Below, piece after piece: positions 43,281 through 64,000 of a DNA stretch of 64,000 nucleotides. Each line of letters opens with the position of its first letter. Position 1 is the stretch's first letter. A program made the translations under genes and the position numbers. The notes beneath the pieces are model-generated. The model made no database searches. It had not been told where the DNA came from and was given only the letters and a program-made list of their open reading frames with translations. This DNA is from a bacterium (GTDB lineage Bacteria; RBG-13-61-14; DATKZS01). The stretch covers positions 416,001 to 480,000 of the forward strand of contig CAXXFL010000006.1 in the NCBI GenBank assembly GCA_963674965.2, in the 5' to 3' direction.

Positions 43281-46200
43281 CTACTGGATGATCTCGTCTC
43301 CCCAGGAGAGTGGAGTGGCGGGGGTAAACTCGGGCTCTTTGAGTAATTCCGGCTCTCCTTCCGGACTGGTGTCGAAAAGTCCTCCTCCCGACTCGCCGAA
43401 GTTGGAGGTGGAAAGCTCACGGTCCTCCGTTTCTTCGACGTACGATCCTTCCTCCATGACCGCCTCTCCGGTCAGATAGTTGAGGGCCCAAAGCCTGACC
43501 TTGCCGTAATCGCAGGGGTTGCTGCCCTGCTCGGGCAGATAGGTTTTGAACCACAACTCTCCCGAGACGACCGCCAGTTCGGTAATGGGCTTTTCTCCCG
43601 GCTCGAACTCGATGGGCCACAGCGCGGAGTCCCCGCTGATTTCCTCGGGTATTGGCTCGGCGTAGGAGCACGCGGTGGAACCAGGGACGTCGTCGTCCAT
43701 GAGCGCGTACATGTGGTTAACCACCGTCTCGTCAAGGGCGACCTCGGAAAGCTCGACGTGGCCCGTATAGAAGTAGACCAGCTTGGTCCGGTTGGGACCG
43801 GCCACCAGCCGGGGGTGGTACCAGATGGGCTTACGCCAGTTGGGGTTGTCCTCGGAGCCCGTGCCTCCAGTGTTGGGGTCGTCCGAGCTGTCGAAGAACA
43901 GGCAACGCTTCCAGTTGTCCGGATCGGGGTCGGAGAAGTTGAACTTCCATATCCTGCCGTCCAGGTCTCCTATGTAGGCCCAGTCGTAGGACCCGTTGTA
44001 ATCGGAGTCGTACAAGATGGGAGAACCCGGGACCTCGTTCATGTTGGTGTCGCCGCTGTACACGAGCGGGTCGAAGCCGCTAACCTGGTCCGCGCCTGGA
44101 AGCTCGAAGGACTTCAAAAGGTCTCCGGTCAGCGCGTCGATCACGTAGAAATATCCTCCCAAATCCGGGTCGTCATGGTTGGGTTTCATGCCGCCTCCGA
44201 AGAAAGCCGCGTTGACCAGATCGACGTCGGCCCCGTCCTTGTAATAGAGGAAACCGACCTTGGGCTTGGACCAGGTCTGACCAAGGTGCTCGTCGGTAAA
44301 GGTCCAAAGCGGTTCCACGTTGTCGCCCGAGCCGGCAACGGAGTTGGCGTCCGTTATATCGAGGGCGAAATATTCGGTCCCGCCGCCGCCAAGGCCGGAT
44401 ATGAGCACGGTCTTCCACGTCGAGTTGTCGTCAAGAACGTCGGCCGCCACCGGCTCGCCGTCGACTCCGTAAATCTGGATGCCCGAGCGCAGGTAGTGCA
44501 GCTTGTCCAGGACGCCGGGGGGAATAAAGGCGAACATTTCCTCGCCTCCGTCAAAGTCGGAAATGTCCTTGACGGCGAAGGCGTGGAGCAGGCCGTACAT
44601 GGTGCCCACGTAGGCGATGGTCGGCCTGCCGGCGTTATCGAGGGCGAAGTCCCTGTATCCGGGCATCGAGTAGTAATCGAAATTGGAGGGATTCTTGACG
44701 ATGATGGGGGCCGAGTGGTAAACGGGACCCAGGGCCCACTTAACCTGGATTTCGCTGGACTCGAAGGAGGCCCCATCCTCGACGTTGACAAAGTCGATAA
44801 GCTTTTGGGCCTTTTGCGCTCTAACCGAGGAGTTGGATCCCCAGAAAATCTCGTCCGGGTCGAAGTAATCCACCAGGGTCGAGGCGCTGGAGGTCGTGAA
44901 ATCGACCTTGTCCAGGCCGCCCAAGCCGTCGGGAACGGCCGTAAAAACGTTACGGCTGGAAGGCGTCCGGTCGTTAAGCATGATAGCCGCGTTGCCGCCG
45001 CCGTCGCCGTCCTCCCAGGCGTAGCTCGGGGTATCGGACTCGATGTCAAGGGTCCAGCCGTAAAGGTTTCCTTTCCAGAGAGGATAGAAACCGTCTATGT
45101 CGAACCGGGTGGTCAGGATGATCCCCTCGGATATCGACACCTGGGGGGCCGAACGAACGTACTGGCCTTTCATGATCGAGTTCATGATCAGACCAAGAGC
45201 GGTGATGAGACCGTCTTTATTGTCCGCATCGAAAAATTCCGTGATATCGTAGGGGTCGTCACTCATGTCCGAGGCTGCAGCCATGGACACCAACTGTTTT
45301 CCACCATTAGTGTTTGGGTCACTGACGTCTCCTCCGAAGCCGATAAAGAAGCTCTTGACGCCGGTGATGGAAGGATAAGGCGCATCCGTGTCTCCGCCGT
45401 TTTTCAGCCAGTTGACCCACTGTACCTGCCTTAGGATAATACTATCTACCTGGGAGGAACTGGGAGAGCCGGTGTAGTAGCCGAGGGGCTCGCCGTCGGT
45501 CTGCTCGCCGTCGGTCAGGAAGATAAGGAAGTTCCTCCGGCACCCGTTCTCGTAATAGGGGTCATCCTGGATGATATGGTCGTTCTCGGAGCCGGTGGCG
45601 GTGGGATAACCCAGGTCGTACTGCATGTTGTGGTTGCCCGTGTAGCCGGACAGGGAACTGAACAGGTAGTTCTCCCTCGGCACGTGCGCCTGGAGGTCGT
45701 CGTTGAAGAAGTACCGGTAAATGTCGTGAAGCGCCGAGGCGATGGGCGTGGACCCGTTCGGGTTCAGGTCCGAAGTGCTCGCGATGTATTCCTGGAGTAT
45801 CTCGTTCAGGGTTTCCTTGTCGTAAGCCGCGTAAGCGGGAAAATCGGACCAGGCGAAGACGTTCGCCATCAGCTTGCCGCCGATGTCGTCACCCTCCGAG
45901 TCGCGGGGGAAATCCTCGCCGTTATAGCGGAAGGCCATGACGCCGTAGTTCACTTTCTTGTAGGTGTCCAAGAAGCCCAGGTCCTCGAACCCGGCCCGGT
46001 CGTAATAAAGGGAACCGAAGAAACCGCCGAGGGTGTTCCCGTCGCGAGGCCCGAACCAGGGCGTGGTCAGGTCGATGTCGTTCTCGGAGACACCGCTTAT
46101 GCCCACGGCCGTCCGGATGTACTCGTCCAGCCTTACCCCGCTCGAGTCGTCCAGGATGAACTCGTGGGGCTCGTCGGGCAGGTCGCCCGAGCTCACCGCC

Positions 46201-47450
46201 TGGGCGTAGGGGATGGCCCCCACGATGGCGTCTATTATTTCCTGGTCCGTGGGCGGCGGAATCTCCACCACCGGCTTGGGGGCGTTGCCGCTACTGTCAC
46301 AGCCGAAATAAACCACGTACTGGGTCGAGTAGTTGCCGTCATTGGTAAGCCTGCCGCTCCAGTCCCAGGTCCAGTATTTCCCTCCCCAGGCGTTCTCGAG
46401 CGGATAGTCTCCCCGAATCTCACGGAAGGTCGTTCCCGCTCCGTCCCATGTGGCCGGGCACCAGTATTCCTTTTCCTTGCCCGCCACGTGCATGTCCAGC
46501 CAGTCCTGCCAGGATATCTTGTTCTGCTCGATAAGCAGGGCCGTGCTTCCCGCGGGCAGGCTGGCGTCGTTGGCCAGGTTGGTCATGACCTCATCGTAGA
46601 GGATAAACCTGGGAGTATCGTTACTATAGTCGGGGGTCGTTTTATTCGGTATATATCCCGCGCTCCAGTTCCAGTTGGCGAAGAAAAGCTCGCCCCGGCG
46701 CCAGGTACCCCACGGGTCCTGGTACCAGCGGCTTCCATCGGCGGAACGGTACTGCACGGGCACAACGTAGTCGGGAAGAAATTCTCCGGCCGGCGCTCCC
46801 TGTTCCTCATACTTCCAGTAGGCTATTAAGGCGTCGTAAAAGGTCATGGCCCCCGAGTCGGAGCAGTCGGCGTACATCCATATCTCGCGCGTGCCGGAGG
46901 GCCCGTCGTCGTTGACCGTATGGTCGCCCATGAACTTGATGCACTCGGCGTCCATCTCGCGCAGGTATCCGTCAAGGGTGGACAGGGCGCCGAAAACGTC
47001 GCTGTCGTTCCTGGAAACGTCGTCGGGGCTGAGGAAAACGAAGGCCGTGCCCCCGTCGTCCGCGGTAAATGTGCCCCCCCCGACTTCATCGACCAGGAAG
47101 ACCCTGAGAAGGCCCTCGTCTATGTCGTCGAGCACGTTGTACTCGCCCTGGGTGGCGAGGTCGTAATGGGGAATGTAGACCTGGTCGCCCGTGAATCGGG
47201 TGGAACCGTCCGGAAAGTAGACGTACTGCACGCCCGACCCGGTGAGAACGGTGCGCACCACGTCCATCCTGGTCCCGTCGGATCCGCTGGCCCAGTTCAT
47301 ACTTCCCGAGGTGTCTATCATGAGCATGATGTTGGGCGCAACGCTGACGCCGGAGTAGAACGGAAGGTCCGCCGCCTGTCCCATGGCCTGGCCGGCGAAG
47401 AGCGCGGCGAAAAGGGCCGGGACCAACGCTAAAAGTTTATATTTTTTCAT
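43281..47450 (-). CDS. pilY1: PilY1-like type IV pilus adhesin (vWA + beta-propeller)
   Basis: Signal peptide, PNIMLMIDTSGSM MIDAS, TPIASAL, FLTDGE, YHSAP, GLLHAF, GGEEMFAFIP, YFALDIT, LGQTWSKP, DLDGRIWK. Confidence 0.9.
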   Translation of the reverse strand: MKKYKLLALVPALFAALFAGQAMGQAADLPFYSGVSVAPNIMLMIDTSGSMNWASGSDGTRMDVVRTVLTGSGVQYVYFPDGSTRFTGDQVYIPHYDLATQGEYNVLDDIDEGLLRVFLVDEVGGGTFTADDGGTAFVFLSPDDVSRNDSDVFGALSTLDGYLREMDAECIKFMGDHTVNDDGPSGTREIWMYADCSDSGAMTFYDALIAYWKYEEQGAPAGEFLPDYVVPVQYRSADGSRWYQDPWGTWRRGELFFANWNWSAGYIPNKTTPDYSNDTPRFILYDEVMTNLANDASLPAGSTALLIEQNKISWQDWLDMHVAGKEKEYWCPATWDGAGTTFREIRGDYPLENAWGGKYWTWDWSGRLTNDGNYSTQYVVYFGCDSSGNAPKPVVEIPPPTDQEIIDAIVGAIPYAQAVSSGDLPDEPHEFILDDSSGVRLDEYIRTAVGISGVSENDIDLTTPWFGPRDGNTLGGFFGSLYYDRAGFEDLGFLDTYKKVNYGVMAFRYNGEDFPRDSEGDDIGGKLMANVFAWSDFPAYAAYDKETLNEILQEYIASTSDLNPNGSTPIASALHDIYRYFFNDDLQAHVPRENYLFSSLSGYTGNHNMQYDLGYPTATGSENDHIIQDDPYYENGCRRNFLIFLTDGEQTDGEPLGYYTGSPSSSQVDSIILRQVQWVNWLKNGGDTDAPYPSITGVKSFFIGFGGDVSDPNTNGGKQLVSMAAASDMSDDPYDITEFFDADNKDGLITALGLIMNSIMKGQYVRSAPQVSISEGIILTTRFDIDGFYPLWKGNLYGWTLDIESDTPSYAWEDGDGGGNAAIMLNDRTPSSRNVFTAVPDGLGGLDKVDFTTSSASTLVDYFDPDEIFWGSNSSVRAQKAQKLIDFVNVEDGASFESSEIQVKWALGPVYHSAPIIVKNPSNFDYYSMPGYRDFALDNAGRPTIAYVGTMYGLLHAFAVKDISDFDGGEEMFAFIPPGVLDKLHYLRSGIQIYGVDGEPVAADVLDDNSTWKTVLISGLGGGGTEYFALDITDANSVAGSGDNVEPLWTFTDEHLGQTWSKPKVGFLYYKDGADVDLVNAAFFGGGMKPNHDDPDLGGYFYVIDALTGDLLKSFELPGADQVSGFDPLVYSGDTNMNEVPGSPILYDSDYNGSYDWAYIGDLDGRIWKFNFSDPDPDNWKRCLFFDSSDDPNTGGTGSEDNPNWRKPIWYHPRLVAGPNRTKLVYFYTGHVELSEVALDETVVNHMYALMDDDVPGSTACSYAEPIPEEISGDSALWPIEFEPGEKPITELAVVSGELWFKTYLPEQGSNPCDYGKVRLWALNYLTGEAVMEEGSYVEETEDRELSTSNFGESGGGLFDTSPEGEPELLKEPEFTPATPLSWGDEIIQ

Positions 47451-47500
47451 GACCATCCCTCCTTGTATAGGTCTTTTCATTTGCCTTGAAACCCTCATAT

Positions 47501-48049
47501 TCAGTCTATCGCGGCCTTGGCCTGCGCAATTACCTCGACGGTGCGGGAAATAACGGGCGAACCCAGTCCCGCTCCTCCAACCCTGACCACCCCGGTGGAC
47601 CGGACGATGAACTGGCCCTTGGGGCTGGAGACGTCAAGGGCCTCTCCAGCGTCGGCAAACCCCTTGGCTATGCCGCCCTCCGGGTCCGCGTTGAGGACAA
47701 CAACCGTGAACTGGAGGTGGTCCTGCGCGGTCCGGGCGGTGTTGTTCGTCGAATCGAGAGTCACCAGCACCGACGAGGTGTTGCCGTCCATAAGGGCCGC
47801 CCCGATGTTGGTCTGGCCTATGCCCACGAGGCCCGAGTCGCTGGCCGCCCAGGCCATGCCCACCATGACTCCCTCCTCGGCCGCGGAAAGGGCCTCCTCC
47901 GCGAGGCGCAGGTTCCGCGAGGAGTGGATGTCGATGGTCGAGACGCTTATAAGCCCGAAACCCAAAAAGGTGAGCACCAAAAGGAAGATGATGGCCACGA
48001 AAAGAGCTTGTCCCTTTTGGCCTTGCGATGCTTTTCTCGAAGTGTTCAT
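47501..48049 (-). CDS. pilX: PilX-like minor pilin
   Basis: QKG|QALFVAIIFLLVLTFLG (no E5), ALSAAEEG. Confidence 0.82.
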   Translation of the reverse strand: MNTSRKASQGQKGQALFVAIIFLLVLTFLGFGLISVSTIDIHSSRNLRLAEEALSAAEEGVMVGMAWAASDSGLVGIGQTNIGAALMDGNTSSVLVTLDSTNNTARTAQDHLQFTVVVLNADPEGGIAKGFADAGEALDVSSPKGQFIVRSTGVVRVGGAGLGSPVISRTVEVIAQAKAAID

Positions 48050-48077
48050 GATATTTCTCCTTTCCTCGCGCCCATGT

Positions 48078-49145
48078 TCAGGGCGTGCATCCCACTATCT
48101 GGCAGTCGAAGGACTCGACGCTCAGGTTTCTCGGCTTGACCGTGGTGGAGAACCTTCTCCTGATGGGCCGGTCCTCATCCCGGAACTTGTCCGACCGGGT
48201 CCAGAGGCTGACCGTCACCGACCTTAACCGGCAGGGGTTGCAAAGTATGCCTTCCTCCGCCATGATTTCCCCGGCCGACAAGGCGGCCTTGGTCGCGTTC
48301 GCGTTCCGGTAGGTCACCTGGAAATCGTCCACCCCCCGGGCCAGGATAAGGTTCTGGTCATCGTCGTCCAGGTCGCAGCCCGCCGCCGTGCAGTTGCACA
48401 TGTAAAGGTTGTATTCCTTATTGCCCCGGTCGTCGGTCTCGTCGGTGTTGACGTAATAAACGCGCCGGTAAAAGGGAGAGATGATGGCCTTATTGCTCAC
48501 GGCGGTACTGAAGGCGCCGCTGATGGTTATCAAGTCTCCCGAGACCGAGGATATCTCGTACATGTTGGAGCTGAATCCCTCGGAGACCACCAGCCAGCCG
48601 GGCTTGTTGAAATCTGAGGCGTCCGTGAACATGGCCCCGTCCCCGGAAAGAACGGTAATGCTGTTGGTCCCCGCCCCGGCGCCAAAAGTGGGGTAAGTGG
48701 TCTGGCGCTGGAAATTGCCCCATATCTCGACGGCGTCGGTATATTCATCTCCTCCCCCCCGGGAGGAGTTGGCGTTGGTTTTAATATCGTTACCCAGGGT
48801 CACGGACTCGCTGACGCCCACGATGACGCTGTTGCCGTTCTTGACGCTTATCACGGGGTATACCTGGTTGGGGTTAATGGGGTTGGCCAGGTTGGCCACG
48901 CCGCGGGGGGCCCCCGTAAAGCCGGCCATTCGGAGGTCGCGGGCGATCATATAAAGGGCCATACGGGCCGAGGCCTGGCTCCGGGCCAACTCGGACTGGG
49001 TCTGGAAGGTCTTGGACTGGTCGGTGAACACGCTGACCATGGCCGTGAGCACGATGGCGGAGATGACCAGGGCGATGAGGAGCTCGATCAGGGTAAAACC
49101 GCTTTTACCGCTTTTTCCCATTGGATTGTTTTTCATGCCGATCAT
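48078..49145 (-). CDS. pilW: PilW-like minor pilin
   Basis: G|FTLIELLIALVI, ARDLRMAG, ILARGVDDFQVTY, FSTTVKPRN. Confidence 0.88.
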   Translation of the reverse strand: MIGMKNNPMGKSGKSGFTLIELLIALVISAIVLTAMVSVFTDQSKTFQTQSELARSQASARMALYMIARDLRMAGFTGAPRGVANLANPINPNQVYPVISVKNGNSVIVGVSESVTLGNDIKTNANSSRGGGDEYTDAVEIWGNFQRQTTYPTFGAGAGTNSITVLSGDGAMFTDASDFNKPGWLVVSEGFSSNMYEISSVSGDLITISGAFSTAVSNKAIISPFYRRVYYVNTDETDDRGNKEYNLYMCNCTAAGCDLDDDDQNLILARGVDDFQVTYRNANATKAALSAGEIMAEEGILCNPCRLRSVTVSLWTRSDKFRDEDRPIRRRFSTTVKPRNLSVESFDCQIVGCTP

Positions 49146-49156
49146 TTTTCCACTCC

Positions 49157-49795
49157 TCACATGTTATATTGCGTGGTGCTCTCGATAACCACGTGATGGG
49201 CGCCCATGCTCCTGAAGGCGGAGAAGCTCCAGTCCTGCTCGAGGTTGACGCTGGCCGGCCTGTCCTTGGGGTTCTCCCACCAGATGACCTCGACCGTGAT
49301 GAGAAGCTGGCCCGGGGCCGGGATGGGAATGTTGGTCACGTCCAGCGCGGCGGTACTGGCCCCTCCGTTCTCGATCGTCCAGCGAAGGTAATACCTGGTG
49401 TCGATCCCGCCATCGGCCCTGGTCCGCCCGAACTCGTCCACCGGGTCCGAGAAGTAATGCCAGTCCGAGGGAAGGCCGTCGCCCGCCGCGACGGTCCGGT
49501 TCGAGTTCGAGTTGTCGTCAAGGTAATGGTTCAGGTTGGGGTTGTCGTCCCTGATGACGGCCCCATCAACGTAGGGAGCGTCAGTGGGGCGAGTATGGTC
49601 GAATGGCAGGGCTTTCAGAAACTCCATTTGCCGCTGGGCGAGCTGGGTCGCCGCCGTCATGTGCTTGCTGAACTGGATTCCCCTGATGGCGGCGACCTGG
49701 AGCTGGGCTATGGCCAGAAGACCCACCGCGAGAACCACCAAGGCGAATAAAACCTCGATGAGGCTGAACCCGCCGTCCCTTTGTCTACTCCTCAT
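49157..49795 (-). CDS. pilV: PilV-like minor pilin
   Basis: G|FSLIEVLFALVVLAVGLLAIAQLQ, ATQLAQRQME, ITVEVIW; RBS AAGGAGG. Confidence 0.88.
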   Translation of the reverse strand: MRSRQRDGGFSLIEVLFALVVLAVGLLAIAQLQVAAIRGIQFSKHMTAATQLAQRQMEFLKALPFDHTRPTDAPYVDGAVIRDDNPNLNHYLDDNSNSNRTVAAGDGLPSDWHYFSDPVDEFGRTRADGGIDTRYYLRWTIENGGASTAALDVTNIPIPAPGQLLITVEVIWWENPKDRPASVNLEQDWSFSAFRSMGAHHVVIESTTQYNM

Positions 49796-49893
49796 TACGT
49801 CCGGCCTCCTTTGCGATTTATTTGGCACGTTATTTCCAAATGTTTCCGATTTATTACGCTTTTTCATGTCTACCCTTTCGCATAACAGGACAA

Positions 49894-49908
49894 GCACCTT
49901 TTGTGCCA
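49894..49908 (-). promoter_or_regulatory. Probable sigma54 promoter of pilVWXY1
   Basis: TGGCAC-AAAAG-GTGC (one mismatch), ~100 bp upstream of pilV. Confidence 0.6.
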
Positions 49909-51007
49909 AAGACCATCATTGATTTTCATATTTAATTTATTCCAATATTACAGCCTCTTACATGATAACGCCAAGACCGAACAAACGGTAAAAATGAACT
50001 TTTTGCATACCTTTTCCTGGACTGAAATAATGACGGATTTTAAAGATGAATCCAAAGCTTGATTTAGACGTCGAAATTTTGAACGAGGATTCAGTAAAGG
50101 AAACGGGCGTTTTGCCACCCTTCATGGCGGCGTTAATGTAAGCCATTAATATTAATAATAAATTACCAAGCGATAAAAATGCCCGAATAAAATGGGGGAC
50201 AAAAACAAAAAGGCATAAACCGGAAAGTAAAGCGGACCGAATTACTCCGCAAATTTTTCATAGTTGTTCTAAGCGAAAAATCTCTAAAATGGGAATCTCA
50301 AGGGGTTTGACAAGAACATTCGATGAATGCCATCACAAAAACAGCTTTTGTCCGCATTATAAGCCAGACGTTTTTCTCGATTTAAAGAAACATATTTTAT
50401 AAATTATTTCAATAACTAAAGCAATAAATAAATTCTTTCCCGGCCCTTCCCGTATCCATTGTAAATCCGAAGCGCAAAGCCTTTTATCCGACACTTTCGT
50501 TACCATGAAAATATTTCATACTCATTTTAAACGCTTTAAAGCCGAACAACGCGTTCTTTTGAATTTAACCCGCCGCTTTTATAAAAGGTGGCTTTCCATT
50601 CGGGCACAGCCAAGAGGTCCGGCCTTTGAACCATCATCCGGACGAGACGCGGATCGGTCATATGATTGCGAGTTTTTTGGCGCTCCAGCTTGAACTGGAT
50701 TTGCAACGTCGGATCGAGGAAAGAACCGGCGCGCCGATCGCCCGGATGGAAAACCCATGATTCATACCGATCGTTAAAATAAGCCCCTCCGTCCCGCTTC
50801 CCATCCGAAAATCACGGACCTCAAATCAAAGCAAAACCAAGACCGAATATACCCCCAAGTCCCGGCGATGAAAAAGCCAATCTTCCATGCAAAGATACAG
50901 GCGCCGGAGGCCGCGGAACTTTAGCCCCGGCAAGCGGTAACGCCGGCGCGACGCCCGGCGTGGTATTGACGACCCGGCCAAAGTATAATAGGGCAAATTG
51001 AAAAGGA

Positions 51008-56490: not shown

Positions 56491-57593
56491 GTAAGCGTCC
56501 GGCCAACCACATCTTGTAAATTTCCCTTGGCAATCCATAATGATGCTCATCGAATCGATAAGGAGGGGTGAGTATGCCGAGGGGCGTTGGAGTTGGCGGT
56601 GACCGGGCCAGGTTTTGGCGGGGGAAGTTGCGGGAGCATAGTTGGAGCGGCTTGTCGGTGAGCGCGTTTTGCCGGCGGGAGGGATTTTCGCCCGGCAGTT
56701 TTTATCGGTGGCGGCGGATTCTTGCGGAGCGTGATGGCGTTATTGAATCGCGGGGTTGTTTGCCCGCGCCCGGCCCGGCGGAGGCTTTCGTTCCGGTTTC
56801 GATTACACCCGGACCCGGGAGCGCGCCGGCCCGGAAAAGTTTTTGGCGGGATTTGAAGGATACCTTCAGGCCGACGCTTATTCCGGTTACGACAAACTTT
56901 ACGAGCCCTCTCCAGGCGTCCCGGGCAAGGTGATCGAGGTCGCATGCTGGGCGCACGCGCGGCGCAAGTTCGTCGAGTCAGAAACGAGCGATTCCTCGCG
57001 CTCGCTGACGGCGGTCGCGTGGATCAAGATTCTTTACGAGGTCGAGAAAGAAGCCAGGGAAGCCGGGCTTTGCGCGGAAGAATTTCGCGAAATTCGTCGG
57101 GAAAAAAGCAGGCAATTACTCGAGGATTTTGGCGAGTGGCTGCGCGGCCAGCGGGCGGAGGTCCTTCCCAAGAGCCCGATCGGCCAGGCCATCGCCTACG
57201 CGCTTAGCAACTGGGCCGCGCTTTACCGCTACGCGGACGACGGCGATCTGGCCATCGACAACAACGCCGCCGAGCGCGCCCTTCGCGGGGTCGCGGTTGG
57301 CCGCAAGAACTGGCTCTTCGCGGGCGGCGACCGGGGAGGCCGTACCGCCGCTATCCTCGCCAGCTTCACCCAAACCTGCAAATCCCTCGGCGCCGACCCC
57401 TTCGCCTACCTCCGCGAGGTCCTCGCCCGCATCGCCGGCCACCCCATGAAAAATCTCTCCGACCTCCTCCCAGATCACTGGCAGGCCGAACAAGACCAAG
57501 CCCACCAAACATAAACGCCAGCGCACTCTCCGCGCAACAAATCCATTTGCAATAAGCTCTCCGACTGCAGGGCGCTGTTGGCCGGACGGTTAC
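56491..57593 (+). mobile_element. Internally deleted IS66-family element
   Basis: TIRs GTAAGCGTCCGGCCAAC / GTTGGCCGGACGGTTAC; tnpA start (SGLSVSAFCRREG..SFYRWR) joined to tnpC 3' half (LQADAYSGY, CWAHARRKF, IDNNAAER, RKNWLF); no tnpB; no TSD. Confidence 0.9.
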
Positions 57594-59225
57594 AATAATA
57601 ATACGTTAAATTAAGATCATAGGCTTCTCCAATAAAGAAATGGTCAATTAAAGTAACGCCCGCTCTATCTAACAAACTCCCGAAGGCAAAGTAAAAAAAG
57701 GTGTCCGTTACTGAACCAATAGTAGAGGTCAATGCCTTAGTGGAACCAAGACCATTATAATGGAAGAACGAGACCTCGGCCTTTTCCTGACAGATCAGAT
57801 CGTCTCCAAATGTATAAGCACTTTTTAAACCTGCTCCGCGTCGGTTTCGCGGAGGGCTTGGGAGTAGCCGGTCTGGTTGTTGTTGTCGATGAGGAAGCGG
57901 GTGACGCCGTCGGGCGTCCGCTTGTATATGCGCTCGCCGCGGAAGTCGTAGGCGTAGGCGGCGGCGAGGGCGGCGTCCTTGTCGGCGCGGGCCATCTTGT
58001 TTTCGAGGTCCCATTCGTATTGCCACGTCTCGCCCGGCCCGGCCTTGCCGGCCATATTGCCATTATCGTCCCACGCGTAGGACGTGACTCCCGAGGCCGC
58101 CGACTCGGTGAGGAGCCTGTCGTTCGCGTCGTAGGCGTAGGCCGTGACCAGGCCGCCCGCGTTCATCTCGAGGCGGTTCCCGAAGGCGTCGTAGTCGTAC
58201 TCGATCCAGTAGGTACGGTCGGGCTCGGGGGAGGTCCGCGCCTCGCGGGTGAGACGATACAAGTCGTCATACCCGTAAGCGCACTCGTCCTCGATCACCG
58301 GCCGCTCGGCCGTGTCGCCCTCCGCCTCCTTCGGCTCGCGGTAGCGCTCGATGATCCCCGTCCGGTTCCCCGCCGGGCCAAGCGTGTACTCGTAGCTCGA
58401 TATCAGCCCGCCCGGCCCCGAGTTCTCGAGGTAGGTCAGGCGGTTCAACTCGTCGAACTCGTATGTGGCCAGCGTCCCGTTCGGATAGGCCATGCTCTTT
58501 CGGTTGCCCACCGCGTCGTAGGCATACTGCGTGATTCCGTTGTCGTCGGTCACGGTCGCGAGGCGGCCGAGCGCGTCGTGGGCGTAGGTCACCACGTGCC
58601 CGCCCGAGTAGGCCGTCTCGATAAGGGCCCCGGCGATATCGTACTTATAGGCGATATACTGCCCGTCCTCCTTGTCGTCGCGGAGGAGCTGCCCGGTGAC
58701 GTCGTCGTAGGTGAAGACGCGGTCCCGATACGGCTCGCCCGCGCCGAACTCGTAGCCAATATAAATCACGCGGACGAGCTGGCCCCGGCCGTTGTATTGG
58801 CGGCCGATGGTCTTGCCGTCCGGATAGGTCCGGAGGGTCTCGCGCTTCATCTCGTCGAACTCGTAAATGACGGTCCGGCCGTTGAAGTCGGTATGGGACG
58901 AGGCCATGCAGCAGTCCCGGTATTCCCACGTCTCGGCCATGCCCTCGGGCAGGGTCCGCGAGGTCTTGCGGCCAAGCTCGTCGTAAGTAAAGGAGGTAAC
59001 GTGCCCGTTGGGATCGACGATCGAGAGCAGGTCCCCACCCGCGTCGTAGGCATAGCGGGTCTCTCCCCCCTCGGCGTCGTCCACCCCGATGAGGCTACCC
59101 ATCTCGTCGTAAAGAAACTCGGTCCTCACGCCCGCCTGGTCCACCTCGGCCACCTTCCTCCTCGAAAGCCGCTTATACCTGATATTATCCCTTACTTCAT
59201 TATTTTCTATAGATATACACCTCAT
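57594..59225 (-). pseudogene. Orphan Rhs/YD-repeat core fragment, frameshifted (~57825) and truncated by IS66
   Basis: Numerous YD repeats (YDELGR, YDAVGNR, YDANDRL); continues in another frame YTFGDDLI...GEAYDLNLTYYY up to the IS end. Confidence 0.85.
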
Positions 59226-59262: not shown

Positions 59263-59811
59263 CTATTTAGTATATAATATATTGATATTATCAGTATCAT
59301 GGATAATACTTAGTTCGATTAGATAATATCTGCTATGCTCAAAAAGGTATAAACGATTACCACAGTTTCTAAATATAGCAGGGAAAGAATTTCGGGTCAT
59401 TTCGGAATCAAAGATAAAAACGGCATATTTATTTTCAGTAAAATGGCTTGTAAATGGTACAATTGTTGCTTCTGCCCAATTAAAGGTGCTGTCATTACTT
59501 GTGTCATATATCGCTATCTCACTAGAATATAATAATATATCAGACCTAATTTTAATCACTCTAACTATGTCGTTATTATCACATATTACATGTATTTTAT
59601 AAAGCGGGTTATACTTATGCCATAGAGTAATGTATCCTTTGTATTGTGAAACTGGACGTTTAATTATACAGTTTAATTGCTTTTTTAACATAATGACATC
59701 GATTAATATATATAATATTACAATAGTAGAGGTGACTAAAAAGAGTTTTTTTAATCTTGTTTTATTATTAGATATCATTGTATTAGTCCTCAACGTACCT
59801 GTTATATACAT
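59263..59811 (-). CDS. Putative immunity/partner protein B (N-terminal TM)
   Basis: AT-rich, abuts Rhs CT-B stop; TM; LWHKYNPLY; start may be 59778. Confidence 0.7.
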   Translation of the reverse strand: MYITGTLRTNTMISNNKTRLKKLFLVTSTIVILYILIDVIMLKKQLNCIIKRPVSQYKGYITLWHKYNPLYKIHVICDNNDIVRVIKIRSDILLYSSEIAIYDTSNDSTFNWAEATIVPFTSHFTENKYAVFIFDSEMTRNSFPAIFRNCGNRLYLFEHSRYYLIELSIIHDTDNINILYTK

Positions 59812-60565
59812 TTTCCCAATCAGGATTGATGTCTAATGCTTTGTTGTTTTTAGCATCCCATTTATAGATATCATAGAGAGGATCAGTAAATACAATAGAC
59901 CTTCTGTTAGGAAATTTAGCCCCCCATGAAGCTGGATTACCATGTGCATTATATAATGGATCGAATTCTTGGATCATACATATTTCCCAGCATGCTTTTG
60001 AATAGGTGATATTTTCAATGCCATCTTGAAGAATTGGATCATTATTATTCATTTCAGAATATCTGAGCTTAGAAAAAGCGCTACTCATCCTTGCTCTATT
60101 ATTAGCTGGATTGATTTCTACAATACAAGCACACGTCAATAGCAGATTTGCATTGCTTTGACATTGTGCTGGAGTCCCCATACAAATCTGAGGCCCTTCG
60201 ATGTATATAGTAGCTTTAACGCTGTAAATAGGCGCGCTCTTGATAAATGAGGAAATACAGCTACTTAAAATTGCAATCACAATTATAATTATAACAACAG
60301 CTATCAAAAGTTCCATCAATGTAAAAAAGCCTGAAAAATCCGTAAGTATAATTGGATTATTGTTTACATATGAATATTTATTAAGTGAGGAAGACATGTA
60401 ATACACGCCATAAAAAGGATCGAGAGACGCGAATATCCCATTCACCGGATCATACAACCTCGCCCTCAGATAGTAATACCCTATATTGAAATCGTAGGCC
60501 TCGCCGGTGAAGAGATGTGAGAATTCGGTCGTGCCGGTCCTGGCGAGTATTTGGCCGAAGGCGAG

Positions 60566-62183
60566 TGTCCTGGTTCAGCGGGAAATGGAGTACCCCCGCT
60601 TTTGCTAAGTGAGTACGGCCTTCGCACTCACCCTCAAGATTCCGCCCTTCGGGCGGGAGTTTTAAGAAGGCATTGGGGGTCTATCGTTTGATGAGTTTAG
60701 GCCGGGCGCTGAGGGTGTTCCCCAACGCCCTCTCATCAACGCGATGAGCCCCGCCGGGCTATCCCTCGGCGGGTTGCTCTCCAGCAGTGCCCGCCTCTGT
60801 TTCACCCGGCAAGCTCAGGCTACTCCAACCGCCAACGCCATGTCAAGCCCGCCGCGTTCGACCATCCGCCGCCGCTTCCGCTCTTCCCGCGCCGCTTCCA
60901 GCTTCAGGTCCCGAGCCGCCCAAATCTCCGCCTCCCGGCCAGCCAGTTTGTCCGCCGGCGCAATGTAACCGATCGCGCTGTGCAACCGCACGTTGTTGTA
61001 ATGCTCCACATACTCGCCCACGATCCGTTTGGCCTCATCCAAACTAAGCGGCGTCTTCGGACGGATGCATTCCTTCTTCAGCGTTTGATACCACCGCTCC
61101 TTCTTGCCGTTGCTTTGCGGATAGTACGGCGAGGTCCGAACATGCGTCATCCCGCTCACTCGGATGAACTCCTTGAAATCCCGGGCGATGAACTGCGGCC
61201 CATTGTCCGAGATGATGCGAGGCCGAGCAGCCGGATACTTCTCCTTCGCCCGCTCCAGGATCACTTCAACCTCCCACTCCTTCATGCTCTCTCGAATGTC
61301 CCAGTGGACCAGGTAGCGGCTTTGGCCGTCAATCACGCTGAACAGGTAATAAAACGTCCCGCAAATATTGATGTGGCTCACGTCAATGTGCCAGTGTTCA
61401 TGCGGCCTTTCGGGCTGCTCGAAACCCGTGCCCTTCAGCGACGGCTGGCCCGAAAACCGACCCAGCAAACCCGCTTCCGACAGCACCCGGTAAACGCTCG
61501 CCGGAGACACGCATACCAGATTCTCATCAAGCATCATGAACGCCAGCCGGCGGTAACCCTCCAGCGGGTGATCGAAATGATAGCGGATGATCGCCTGCTT
61601 CTCCCAATCCAAAAGCCAATGGTCCCGAGGGACCTTGCCGTTGTGCTCGTTGGCCAGGCCGTAGCGCTTCTTCCAGTCGTAGTACTTCGAGCTCGATATC
61701 CCCAGCCAATCGATCAGACGGGCCGCCGGAAGCTCCGCGCGGGAAAGCCAGTAGCCGACGTAGTCAACCACCTCGTCCCGCGTGTCGGGGGGGACCCATG
61801 CGGCCCTCAGAGGTCCCCAAGCTCTTTTTTTAACTTGACGTGGTCCTCCATCAGCTCTGAAATCACCTCGTCCTTCTTCCGAAGCTTGGCTTCCAGCGCC
61901 TCGATCCGCTCTGCCTCGCGCCGCTCCGGCCGGGAGGGCTGCCGTTCGAAGGCCGCCGCGCCGTTTTCAAAGAACTGCTTCTGCCAGTTGTAGAACTGGG
62001 TCGGCTGAATCCGCTCCTGCTCGCAAAGCTCCGACACTGCCACCTTGTCAACCAGGTGCCGCCTCAGCACCCGAACCTTCTCCTCCGCCGTAAATCTTCT
62101 TCGTCTCCCTTCCATCGTCCCGCCTCCTTCTCGATATAACTATCCTCGCGGAGGCGTTCTCCATTTTCAACTGAGGCAGGACA
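60566..62183 (-). mobile_element. IS3-family insertion sequence
   Basis: Imperfect TIRs starting TGTCCTG...AAATGGAG at both ends; 4-bp TSD CGAG; orfA/orfB. Confidence 0.93.
60815..62115 (-). CDS. IS3 transposase OrfA (61807-62115) / OrfB via -1 frameshift
   Basis: RRRFTAEEK HTH; A7G slippery run at 61824-61831; WHID, SDNG, PQSNGK.ER, YNNVRLHSAIGY. Confidence 0.92.
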
Positions 62184-62827
62184 CGAGGTAGTCGACGGCG
62201 TCGGTGACGTCTCCGGCGATGGAGGTGAGGGCGCGGGTGGAGCCGAGGCCGTCGTAGTGGAAGAAGGAGACCGCCCCGGCTCGGGTCTGGCTGATGAGGT
62301 CGTCGCCGAAGGCGTAGGCGGCAAGCTCCGCGCCGGAGGCGTTTGTCTCGCGGGCCACCTGCGAGTATCCAGTGCGGTTGTTGTTGTCCACCAGGTAATT
62401 CACGCTCTCCCCCGGAGTCGTTTTCCTTATCCGCTCGCCCCTGTAATCGTAGGCGTACTCCGCCTCGAGGGCGCCGTCCTTCTCGGCCCTCGCCATCTTA
62501 TTATCACATGTCCACTCGTAAACCCAACTCCCCTCGGGGCCCGCCTTCCCCGCCATGTTGCCATTATCGTCCCAACTATAAGACGTAACCCCCGCCCCCG
62601 AGGATTCGGACAAAAGCCGGTCGTTGCCGTCATGGGCGTAAGTCGTCACCGCCCCGCCCGCGTTCATGGACTTCCTGTTCCCGAAGGCGTCGTAGTCGCT
62701 CTTGAAAAAGATGTCTCCACAATTTGCCATAAAAATTCTCACGTACAATTTAGTGACACTACTAAAAGTAAATTAAAATGACCTGCTCGCTATGCTCGCC
62801 CACATAGGCGAACAATGAATTACCTGT

Positions 62828-63355
62828 TTAGTCATAATTTATTATTGATGTTCTATAATATATTTTTTTATTTGAACGATTCCAGATATAAAATACTTTT
62901 CTTTTATTATTATTGTCATAGGCATAATGCCAGCATATTTGAATATTTGTATTGAATCGCCACGTGATAAGATTTGTGTGAGGCCATATTTCGTAGCTAC
63001 TATGATGTATCTTTCCGTGATCCTCATCCGCGTAAAAGAAGATATTATTTAAGCCAATAAATGACTTGCCATCGTATTCGTAATACCTTATATTTTTTTT
63101 ATATGTGGAGTACAGAGGATTATATCTGTACCATAATATAAGATTTTTATCAATCGTAGATATATTTTTATTAATTGATGTTTTCGCTTGAGTAATGCCG
63201 CATAAAATATCTATTGCGGTGTACAATGTAAATATAAATGTCAAAAACGCCGCGATATAGTATTTATATTTATAAATAGTCTTACCAATCCTCTCCAGTT
63301 TTATCAAGATATAGTCTATTCCAGTTATCAATTGATTTGAACTCTGTGTTTCCAT
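62828..63355 (-). CDS. Putative immunity/partner protein A (N-terminal TM)
   Basis: AT-rich, follows Rhs CT-A; TM; LWYRYNPLY; start uncertain. Confidence 0.7.
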   Translation of the reverse strand: METQSSNQLITGIDYILIKLERIGKTIYKYKYYIAAFLTFIFTLYTAIDILCGITQAKTSINKNISTIDKNLILWYRYNPLYSTYKKNIRYYEYDGKSFIGLNNIFFYADEDHGKIHHSSYEIWPHTNLITWRFNTNIQICWHYAYDNNNKRKVFYIWNRSNKKIYYRTSIINYD

Positions 63356-64000
63356 CTTTTTTATTTACCTCCAATGTTCCAATCTTATCTGGTTTCTCAT
63401 TATTCAGAAAATGAACTTTTTCATTGTCCGGCAGAGTGACTCCCCAGCCCTCAGTTAAAGAAAGGTCTTCAACAAGCGGCCCATAGCAGTATTTGTAACA
63501 TGTAGCAATACAAGCATCCTGTATGCTAATCTCATCGCCTAATTGACTGCCATAATTATCATGCATATCTCGAGTGTAATCCATGTACCTTTCTTTAATA
63601 TTGTATGCCGAGATATTCTCTCTATGATATCCGATTAAACAAAAACGTTCAGCAGTATATTCTGCTTCTATTTTGATAATATCTGGGTTTCGTAAGGCAA
63701 TTGCACTTGCACCACCAGTCGCTTTATAAAGAGGACGCGCTGTAATATTATATTTTCTGGTGTCCTGCCAAGATTTGGCACAAGGTAGGGCCAAAAGGAC
63801 TAATATGGTAAGAACTATTAATATAACTGCAAGTTTAATAAGATTAAAATAGCCTGATAAATCTGTAAATAAAATAGGATTATTGTTTACATATGAATAT
63901 TTATGAAGAGAGGAAGACATGTAATACACGCCATAAAAAGGATCGAGAGAAGCGAACATCCCGTTCACCGGATCATACAACCTCGCCCTCAGATAGTAAT
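63282..64000 (-). CDS. Rhs protein 3' end (core end + pilin-like C-terminal domain A); 5' part outside window
   Basis: YYLRARLYDP...LDP...KYSYVNNNPILFTDLSG then hydrophobic helix and Cys-rich domain. Confidence 0.88.
   Translation of the reverse strand, partial: YYLRARLYDPVNGMFASLDPFYGVYYMSSSLHKYSYVNNNPILFTDLSGYFNLIKLAVILIVLTILVLLALPCAKSWQDTRKYNITARPLYKATGGASAIALRNPDIIKIEAEYTAERFCLIGYHRENISAYNIKERYMDYTRDMHDNYGSQLGDEISIQDACIATCYKYCYGPLVEDLSLTEGWGVTLPDNEKVHFLNNEKPDKIGTLEVNKKDGNTEFKSIDNWNRLYLDKTGEDW

Follow-up and report, generated by a model that had tools for sequence, protein, structure and literature searches.

A pilin-like leader helix at the predicted autocleavage junction of a clade of surface Rhs toxins

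The Rhs effectors of type VI secretion systems (T6SS) RhsA, Rhs1/Tre23 and Tse5 are among the described systems closest to the genes considered here. As set out in the available parts of the source papers, they share with them a YD shell, aspartyl autocleavage at its C-terminal end, an encapsulated toxin and a cognate immunity gene, and the pore-forming Tse5 carries a membrane-inserting toxin within the shell. They differ in being linked to PAAR or VgrG and in having L, W or F as the residue before the cut (P1), and no conserved residues after the cut are described in those parts. Rhs cassettes, orphan Rhs modules and YD shells carrying membrane helices are already known. The subject of the present analysis is a stretch of 64,000 nucleotides from a bacterial genome (GenBank assembly GCA_963674965.2, contig CAXXFL010000006.1, positions 416,001 to 480,000 of the forward strand), referred to as the window. 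Two orphan Rhs modules of the window, A and B, end in C-terminal toxin regions (CTs), CT-A and CT-B, each of which opens with a hydrophobic helix that resembles the first helix of a mature type IV pilin. Judged from its sequence, this helix is the fully hydrophobic version of a leader with which, in a large clade of Rhs surface proteins exported by Sec, the CTs begin, whatever the toxin that follows.

Several described proteins share part of this arrangement. The top solved matches to the CT-B junction are the mosquito salivary gland proteins SGS4 (E = 3.4e-8) and SGS1 (E = 1.1e-5) (PDB 8fjp, 9on3; PMC9935623). They have a YD/Rhs shell and, like CT-A and CT-B, a hydrophobic helix directly after the aspartyl autoprotease site, and the cut proposed for SGS1, four residues after the catalytic Asp, is in the same register. 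The predicted transmembrane (TM) helices of SGS1 lie inside the shell on hydrophobic patches, as seen by cryo-electron microscopy (PMC9935623). Unlike the CTs of the window, SGS1 and SGS4 are eukaryotic, have six predicted helices instead of one, lack a Glu at position 5 and come with no immunity gene; SGS4 continues as GE-FAFTLAVLILALVG. Likeness to pilins goes unmentioned in the available part of the SGS1 paper (PMC9935623). BiTLP, a teneurin-like protein of Bacillus inaquosorum (PDB 9pt5, 9ifo; PMC13018210), is a Sec-type surface YD-shell toxin with immunoglobulin-like (Ig) domains that is cut after DPxGL. Its hydrophobic C-terminal domain has a predicted TM segment, is toxic to E. coli and permeabilises it only when exported to the periplasm, and has associated immunity genes (PMC13018210). 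The only intact Rhs protein of the window's family aligns with BiTLP through the cleavage site. In contrast to the leader clade, the C-terminal domain of BiTLP starts ICLSK..., its TM segment lies about 20 residues past the cut (2165-2185) and it has no F-S/T-L-x-E motif.

The architecture of the intact Rhs protein itself resembles that of the RHS toxins with an inactive transglutaminase described by Zhang et al. in 2012, which begin with a TM helix or signal peptide, followed by a transglutaminase-like domain, sometimes by bacterial Ig domains, and then by the RHS repeats (PMC3482391). Neither the word pilin nor a leader helix was found in the available text of that paper (PMC3482391). Type IV pilins and pseudopilins have in common with the leader the residues F1, T or S at position 2, L3, E5 and Pro22, together with a stretch of some 20 hydrophobic residues and a small residue at position 14. 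They differ in that a short basic leader ends in Gly at -1 and is cut off by PilD, followed by methylation, whereas in the CTs a large Rhs core precedes the Gly, which stands at -2, and cleavage is, by analogy, expected to be autocatalytic. A first-pass annotation of the window did not recognise the arrangement as a described Rhs system. No published pilin-like leader on Rhs toxins was found in the literature that lies outside subscription journals and supplementary figures, which agrees with that view.

Toxin junctions and their predicted cleavage register

The junction of CT-B is NPIILTDFSG-F-FTLMELLIAVVIIIIVIAILSSC, with the F1 codon at 60325-60323, and that of CT-A is NPILFTDLSG-Y-FNLIKLAVILIVLTILVLLALPC, with F1 at 63848-63846, AAA (Lys) at position 5 (63836-63834) and Pro22. 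Both read as the first-pass annotation had given them. The alignment to the Rhs_assc_core model TIGR03696 ends at the Gly (profile position 75 of 76) in CT-A and CT-B alike. CT-A scores 38.1 bits against a cut-off of 32.5; for the CT-B fragment, the open reading frame (ORF) scored began at the first start codon (224 aa, of which 43 are core), and the result, 28.1 bits, lies below that cut-off. In RhsA, D1346 is catalytic and the density ends after W1350 of DPxGW (PMC8765631). In Rhs1 the toxin begins at A1343, after D1338-PLGL (PMC8636562). In BiTLP, D2140 is catalytic and the density ends after L2144 (PMC13018210), and in SGS1, with D2729, the proposed cut falls between 2733 and 2734 (PMC9935623). 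By analogy, these four published structures of Rhs/YD shells, as far as they are described in the available text, support the view that the cut follows the residue after the Gly of DPxG. The Phe would therefore be the new N-terminus of both toxins. The spacing from DPxG-x to the start of the helix is fixed, and the toxins begin without a linker one residue past the Gly of the second motif.

Each leader continues after position 5 as an uninterrupted hydrophobic helix of about 20 residues, with a best 19-residue Kyte-Doolittle mean of 3.16 in CT-A and 3.39 in CT-B. A single-sequence AF2 model of CT-B has a helix at residues 3-29, with block means of the predicted local distance difference test (pLDDT) of 93 and 96 over residues 1-20 and of 77 over residues 21-30. 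Outside the helix the model is poor (mean pLDDT 48.7, and below 50 for most of the body). The two toxins are weakly similar to each other (BLASTP E = 0.006 over 43 aa), and candidate immunity proteins A and B are related (E = 1e-5). The CT-A toxin matched no family in Pfam, and neither candidate immunity protein matched a family in Pfam or NCBIfam. An exhaustive phmmer search with CT-B against 1.84 billion representatives returned only CT-B itself and no detectable relatives.

The start seen in CT-B recurs in the same genome, where the Rhs family of the window has six core ends; three of the six continue with FT[LI]xE[LI] and a hydrophobic helix. The other Rhs families of the genome contribute 20 core ends, from three giant ORFs with orphan arrays and three others, and these yield 14 distinct CT starts. 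An F-[STN]-[LIMV] start occurs in none of the 14, only one of which begins with F, and the motif is absent from the four core ends parsed in relatives from the phylum. Because the 14 starts of other families and the four core ends from relatives are without it, the FTLxE-type start is, on its sequence distribution, a trait of one Rhs family. That family has a single intact Rhs gene, on the same contig at a distance of about 370 kb; its 2900-aa product combines Ig domains and a transglutaminase-like domain with an anchor at the N-terminus.

A clade-wide leader and its likeness to pilin helices

A sample of the clade was drawn from 5.8 billion proteins searched with residues 2480-2695 of the intact Rhs protein, a query that is confined to the core and stops six residues short of the cut. 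The search gave 380 matches at E <= 1e-5; the best 120 were taken, and the junction could be parsed in 102 of the 120. Position 1 after D-P-[ST]-G-x is F in 64 of the 102, position 2 is S or T in 58 and position 3 is L, I or M in 65. At position 5, 24 have E, 20 S, 12 G and 8 Q. The residue before the F varies (N 27, L 21, K 12, E 12, H 8 and Y 7 of 102). In most clade members this residue, which separates the Gly of DPxG from the conserved Phe, is a polar one (N, K, E, H or Q), whereas it is L, W or F in characterised Rhs proteins. The members carry transglutaminase, Ig, cadherin and FG-GAP domains, belong to many phyla and end in many different toxin domains (e.g. Tox-PL-2).

Conservation extends along the helix. 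When the clade list was parsed more loosely, giving 105 distinct sequences and leaving out the genome studied here, E was at its highest at position 5 (23), G reached a local maximum at position 14 (19, against 2-12 at positions 10-31) and P was commonest at position 22 (9, against at most 5 elsewhere), although a P near 22 may signal no more than where a 20-residue helix ends. In a second sample of 100, which is biased towards helices, E5 occurs in 18, G14 in 24 and P22 in 10; P18, also in 10, comes from one redundant family. The leader consensus is F-[ST]-[LI]-x-[E/S/G]-phi ... I12-I13-[G/S]14-I15-L16-A17 ... A20. The start residues F1, S/T2, L3 and E5, to which the first-pass annotation drew attention, are conserved beyond the window in the clade sample, and G14 and P22 are local maxima in the same register. 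The Glu5 noted in that annotation is present in CT-B; CT-A has K there, and E is found in 24 of the 102 clade members.

The start motif and the membrane helix are separable. F[ST][LIMV]xE is found in 16 of the 102, a strict TM test is passed by 16 of the 102, and the two sets do not overlap. Because these sets are disjoint and the FTLxE junctions are mostly polar, F-S/T-L-x-E is, on these sequences, a clade-wide junction feature that is independent of a membrane helix. A genome collection was also scanned with the pattern D-P-[S/T-like]-G-x-F-T-L-x-E-phi; its at least 117 matches serve as examples and are not a census. Among the matches listed, at least 24 are Rhs junctions by a stricter pattern (20 distinct), and at least 23 form a remainder in which a few Rhs junctions missed by that pattern are found. 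The distinct FTLxE Rhs junctions, at least 20, come from cyanobacteria, clostridia, Acidobacteriota, Verrucomicrobiota, Planctomycetota, Bacteroidota and gamma-proteobacterial symbionts, and most of those among the matches listed continue as FTLxE[LV]N[VI]S..I[QR]..L, which is polar. At least 70 of the matches listed belong to an unrelated conserved protein, ...DP[ST]GxFTLxE[VFM]ECLGACDRAP..., mostly from Acidobacteriota, which we take to be NADH dehydrogenase subunit E.

The first-pass annotation had proposed a scan with PF07963 and TIGR02532, and neither CT reaches the cut-off of either. CT-B scores 11.5 bits with Pfam N_methyl (cut-off 21.2), its residues 45-64 aligned to profile positions 7-26 with F45 at position 7, and 8.0 bits with TIGR02532 (cut-off 16.3); CT-A matches neither model. 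Several pilin equivalog models match CT-B at E 0.05-0.5, all from the same Phe. A sister cassette starting FTLFEL... scores 12.7 bits, again below the cut-off, and 0 of 18 clade members match N_methyl at E <= 1. Among the genes of this bacterium are one for a prepilin peptidase, 9 for N_methyl proteins and 14 for T2SSE-type ATPases. A hidden Markov model (HMM) of its nine prepilins places CT-B 12th of 64,904 six-frame ORFs, at 7.7 bits against 26-41 for the pilins. The hallmark of prepilin peptidase substrates, Gly at -1 after a short basic leader, is missing, the Gly standing at -2 behind the Rhs core. Over the first 10 residues, CT-B is identical at 8 of 10 to FTLIELLIAL of a PilW-like protein in the window. 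The first six leader residues presumably also fit a generic helix-start motif, a capping box plus hydrophobic staple. A comparison with a protein atlas (top score 0.80, two N_methyl clusters among the matches) gives no more than a lead, as shuffled proteins reach that score a third of the time.

Two single proteins carry helices of a more pilin-like kind. An orphan Rhs module of 285 aa on a contig of a Verrucomicrobiota metagenome-assembled genome (L023:219-1076, minus strand; the record includes a masked stretch) has a CT that opens with DPSGM-FTLIELLIVIAIIEILVVLLLP, which comes close to a perfect prepilin-type helix. Its toxin part, searched against proteins of 96-308 aa, has no relatives but itself. 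P0019, a 2811-aa protein from a subsurface metagenome, has the architecture of the intact Rhs protein, with transglutaminase-like, Big_7 and DUF6531 domains. Its CT, ISP-YTLTALSLAVAIIGILATIAIP, is identical to the helix of the genome's major pilin at 16 of 22 residues, shifted by three residues and without the Glu, and scores 18.1 bits against the pilin HMM.

Compared as profiles, the CT starts of the clade and the pilin helices agree by position. With an HMM built from 98 CT starts of other organisms, prepilins rank 1st (E = 0.047), 2nd, 4th and 6th among the 64,904 ORFs, all aligned from F1. When the HMM is limited to positions 6-24, the major pilin is still 2nd and in register, with other pilins at ranks 189 and 325. 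The pilin HMM gives at least 3 bits to 17 of 98 forward CT starts, against 6 of 98 reversed and 10 of 490 shuffled ones. In a BLOSUM profile-profile comparison over 31 shifts, shift 0 is best for positions 1-24 (2.46, next -8.97), for 6-24 (-2.58 against -5.54) and for 10-24 (-2.38 against -4.42). Out of 20,000 permutations of the pilin columns, none attains the observed score for positions 1-24, 6-24, 10-24 and 6-21, 1 does so for 10-21 and 7 do so for 6-17. The figure is 4 of 20,000 when the F[ST][LIMV]xE sequences are left out, and 492 of 20,000 for only the 37 sequences that lack F1. The likeness to a pilin helix, first noted in two CTs, is therefore upheld for the clade, whose CT-start profile matches pilin helices by position at zero shift, even without residues 1-5.

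The orphan cassette array and its surroundings

The region of the window that holds CT-A and CT-B is an array of orphan Rhs C-terminal toxin/immunity cassettes, riddled with insertion sequences (IS), of foreign origin and low in G+C content (GC), with no complete shell (Table 1). Its cassette nature is recognised from the Rhs core ends, the toxins without a family, the small downstream ORFs, the low GC and the IS3 and IS66 elements. GC is 29-36% in the CTs and small ORFs (0.32-0.36 in CT-A, 0.29-0.36 in CT-B) against about 60% in the flanks. The stop-to-stop frame of module A comprises 420 aa, about 180 aa of it core, without a full shell and with nothing larger upstream. In module B the upstream core frame stops at ...DAVDYL and gives way to IS sequence; the insertion point of the IS3 element is the codon for L in ...TYLAFGQ... 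of the core. The ends of this element, GTGTCCTG...CAGGACA, have 8-base terminal inverted repeats and a CTC target duplication as read by eye and are approximate; a repeat search at these ends found no inverted repeat of at least 14 bases.

Table 1. Features of the Rhs cassette array, junctions of the same Rhs family in the genome (without coordinates; the hyphen stands at the predicted cut) and the neighbouring minor-pilin operon
Feature	Coordinates	Strand	Remarks
Module A, end of orphan Rhs core	63849..64000	minus	YYLRARLYDP...NNNPILFTDLSGY, with autoprotease motifs; runs past window end
CT-A leader helix	63780..63848	minus	FNLIKLAVILIVLTILVLLALPC; F1, K5, P22
CT-A toxin	63282..63848	minus	188 aa from F1, 6 Cys; ORF 63282-63998, open at window end
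Candidate immunity protein A	62828..63355	minus	175 aa; one N-proximal hydrophobic helix; overlaps end of CT-A toxin
Module B, upstream Rhs core piece	62183..62748	minus	severed by IS3; RHS_repeat E=1.2e-10
IS3-family element inside module B	~60569..62182	minus	orfA 61807-62115, orfB 60815-61771; HTH_Tnp_1 and rve domains
Module B, downstream Rhs core piece	60326..60568	minus	LAFGQILARTG...NNNPIILTDFSGF
CT-B leader helix	60257..60325	minus	FTLMELLIAVVIIIIVIAILSSC; F1, T2, L3, E5
CT-B toxin	59783..60325	minus	180 aa from F1, 7 Cys; ORF 59783-60457
Candidate immunity protein B	59263..59811	minus	one N-proximal hydrophobic helix; likely ATG at 59778, 4 nt past toxin stop
Third orphan Rhs core fragment	57475..59225	minus	two frames; RHS_repeat E=2.3e-43; abuts IS66 fragment
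IS66 fragment	56756-57514	plus	DDE_Tnp_IS66 E=8.2e-56
Minor-pilin operon of type IV pilus	43281-49909	minus	~10 kb from the Rhs cassettes
CT-A junction			DLSGY-FNLIKLAVILIVLTIL
CT-B junction			DFSGF-FTLMELLIAVVIIIIV
Orphan cassette junction			DPSGY-FTIYEIMIAIAVITIL
Orphan cassette junction			DPSGM-FTLFELAIVIVIGSVIL
Orphan cassette junction			DPSGN-MPSLISLIVALSIITIL
Intact gene junction (2900 aa)			DYSGY-SLIEIMTNIAVRVYL

The ORFs that follow the toxins differ with the toxin start. Behind all five CTs of the genome with a TM start, the next ORF is low in GC and has a TM or lipoprotein-like N-terminus; behind the less hydrophobic CT of the intact Rhs gene, it encodes a soluble protein of 138 aa. 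The low-GC immunity candidates beside the intact Rhs gene and the first orphan (G000 C6:849203-849619, C6:845874-847068) are this soluble 138-aa protein and a multi-TM protein of 107 aa. A third such candidate, of 280 aa, has an N-terminal TM helix followed by repeats that look HEAT-type by eye.

Other Rhs and secretion genes lie elsewhere in the genome. A second Rhs family consists of three giant ORFs of 3260-3356 aa with long arrays of orphan modules (G000 C2:79257-100277, C6:735574-749473, C6:882104). The C2 and C6 arrays have several CT starts in identical form, suggesting that a large duplication took place recently; no CT start of this family is pilin-like. The genome also has a T6SS sheath gene and one PAAR gene. 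Within the window, the minor-pilin operon is separated from the Rhs cassettes by unrelated genes. Its ORFs encode PilY1-like (1405 aa), PilX-like (182 aa), PilW-like (360 aa, GFTLIELLIALVISAIVL) and PilV-like (250 aa, GFSLIEVLFALVVLAVGL) proteins, names that are readings of the sequences, the computed evidence being N_methyl hits only. At positions 50000-50499, between the pilV-like gene and a gene of the glycogen-debranching type, GC dips to 36%.

Possible functions of the leader

On balance, it seems somewhat likely that an undescribed, clade-wide, pilin-like leader helix anchors the released toxin in the target membrane, or inserts it there, without pilus machinery. The leader of CT-A and CT-B is read as a membrane anchor or insertion helix because of the precedents of SGS1/SGS4 and BiTLP, the TM or lipoprotein-like N-termini encoded by the downstream ORFs and the 6 and 7 Cys of the two toxins. 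Recombination onto the intact rhs gene would place a CT inside a YD shell, where aspartyl autoproteolysis would expose Phe1 and the shell would shield the helix, as in SGS1. On delivery, the helix would enter the target cytoplasmic membrane from its outer face and would need neither prepilin peptidase nor pilus machinery. In CT-A and CT-B it may then remain as an anchor that holds the Cys-rich domain at the periplasmic face, and a membrane-anchored immunity protein may block the toxin there in sibling cells. An N-terminal Phe is an N-degron in the bacterial cytoplasm, and in that capacity it might limit self-intoxication.

Several points weigh against this account of the leader as a membrane anchor or insertion helix. 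The second motif is DLSG in CT-A and DFSG in CT-B, with the Asp and Gly kept and the Pro replaced, whereas 98 of the 102 clade members have the Pro. The true cut could lie one residue later, since P1 is polar in most clade members, unlike the W, L or F of characterised Rhs proteins. The register is off by one in some proteins, with GY-SLIE in the intact Rhs and G-x-FF-S-[LM]-I-E in two proteins of the sample. In most of the clade the helix contains N, S, Q or charged residues and is too polar to cross a membrane; leaders of this kind precede enzymes such as a papain-fold toxin. Enzymes of this kind are usually taken to act in the cytoplasm. Because most leaders are too polar and precede cytoplasm-type enzymes, a simple anchor role cannot hold for the whole clade. 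The modules of the window are probably silent, because neither has a shell and module B is split by an IS. The sequences of the clade sample are related, so that its counts overstate independence, and the pilin profile was built from 9 pilins of one genome. What the analysis itself shows is the sequence, the register, the conservation, the statistics and the order of the genes, whereas cleavage in the modules of the window, insertion into the membrane, topology, the function of the immunity candidates and any role of E5 are inferred.

A closer tie to pilins may be considered, in which the CTs of the clade open with a true type IV pilin alpha1-N. Autoproteolysis would make Phe1, and the toxin would enter the cytoplasmic membrane of the target from its periplasmic side like a retracted pilin, Glu5 offsetting its free amino terminus, and would sometimes engage the pilus or type II secretion system (T2SS) platform of the target. 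This is judged unlikely, if worth entertaining.

An intramolecular role of the leader is doubtful to a similar degree. The start would supply the P1'-P6' residues of the autoprotease site and a strong helix-start signal made up of a hydrophobic residue, an S/T cap, an E three positions further on and another hydrophobic residue; the helix would pack on hydrophobic patches of the shell, and the likeness to pilins would be a convergence of helices with a face of small residues. The motif does follow one core clade and not a toxin type, at a fixed spacing from DPxG, and it precedes polar helices and varied toxins in Gram-positive and Gram-negative lineages alike. The S/T-x-x-E of the leader can, on our reading, be taken as a capping box. 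The post-cut helices of SGS1 touch the interior of the shell through hydrophobic patches, as described in the available part of the paper (PMC9935623). However, such a role leaves unexplained the pilin similarity that persists without positions 1-5 or 1-9, and the pairing of TM-start toxins with membrane-anchored immunity candidates. Characterised Rhs/Tc proteins, moreover, cleave without such a motif, as at DPDGM-APL in YenC2 and DPSGL-ICLSK in BiTLP.

The main idea of the first-pass annotation was functional pilin mimicry, in which the type IV pilus or T2SS platform of the target or the producer would recognise the Phe1 start and the fibre would be joined, capped, poisoned or used for entry. 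The likeness in register does go beyond F1 and E5, to I12, I13, G14, I15, L16 and P22. L023 and P0019 have near-perfect pilin helices, and a prepilin peptidase, N_methyl proteins and T2SSE-type ATPases are encoded in the genome. Yet no CT passes any prepilin model, CT-B scoring 7.7 bits where true pilins score 26-41; E5 is found in 24 of 102 clade members against 9 of 9 genome pilins, with K5 in CT-A; and most leaders are insufficiently hydrophobic for the core of a pilus. The CT-B model (mean pLDDT 48.7) is too poor to show a pilin-like globular fold, and the minor-pilin operon of the window stands apart from the cassettes. With nothing to tie the cassettes to pilus genes, no model match and E5 in a minority, the pilus-related role proposed for the CTs finds no direct support, and mimicry appears improbable.

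Less probable still is that the leader is a relic of gene capture, FTLxE microhomology having let recombination graft the 5' ends of pilin genes onto Rhs cores, so that the consensus would be a residue with no present pilin function. Rhs loci are recombination hot spots, and the window shows rearrangement mediated by IS elements. The pilin-like stretch of P0019 is three residues out of register, and the L023 helix ends ...LLLP in a Verrucomicrobiota genome. That ending is, we presume, a flavour of the prepilin-like proteins of Verrucomicrobiota themselves. However, the pattern is kept at the protein level across phyla and ahead of unrelated toxins, which points to selection, and the L023 toxin has no relatives among proteins of 96-308 aa, so that it was not possible to demonstrate the capture of an entire pilin gene. 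Gene capture could explain single cases such as L023. That ordinary TM helices happen to start FTLxE by chance is hardly credible: the pilin-model matches are all sub-threshold (E 0.05-2.6) and shuffled proteins attain the atlas score of 0.80 a third of the time, but the motif occurs at 3 of 6 core ends of this family against 0 of 14 distinct CT starts of other Rhs families, and the clade enrichment, the register scan and the permutation tests all speak against it.

The finding provides a conserved leader of 20-25 residues located exactly at the predicted new N-terminus, and thus a concrete element to mutate. It may also help in annotating where Rhs toxin domains begin in those clades that have a residue other than L, W or F after DPxG. 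If the CTs do open with a true alpha1-N module, a pilin-like protein would be made along a second, protease-independent route and Rhs toxins outside the T6SS would have a mechanism of entry, and a functional link to pilins, if true, would join the fields of polymorphic toxins and type IV filaments. To our knowledge, no protein helix other than that of pilins is known to move into and out of the cytoplasmic membrane from the periplasmic side. The step on which the leader would bear is the one by which surface toxins of the Sec-exported Rhs and teneurin-like kinds bring their payload into or across the target membrane.

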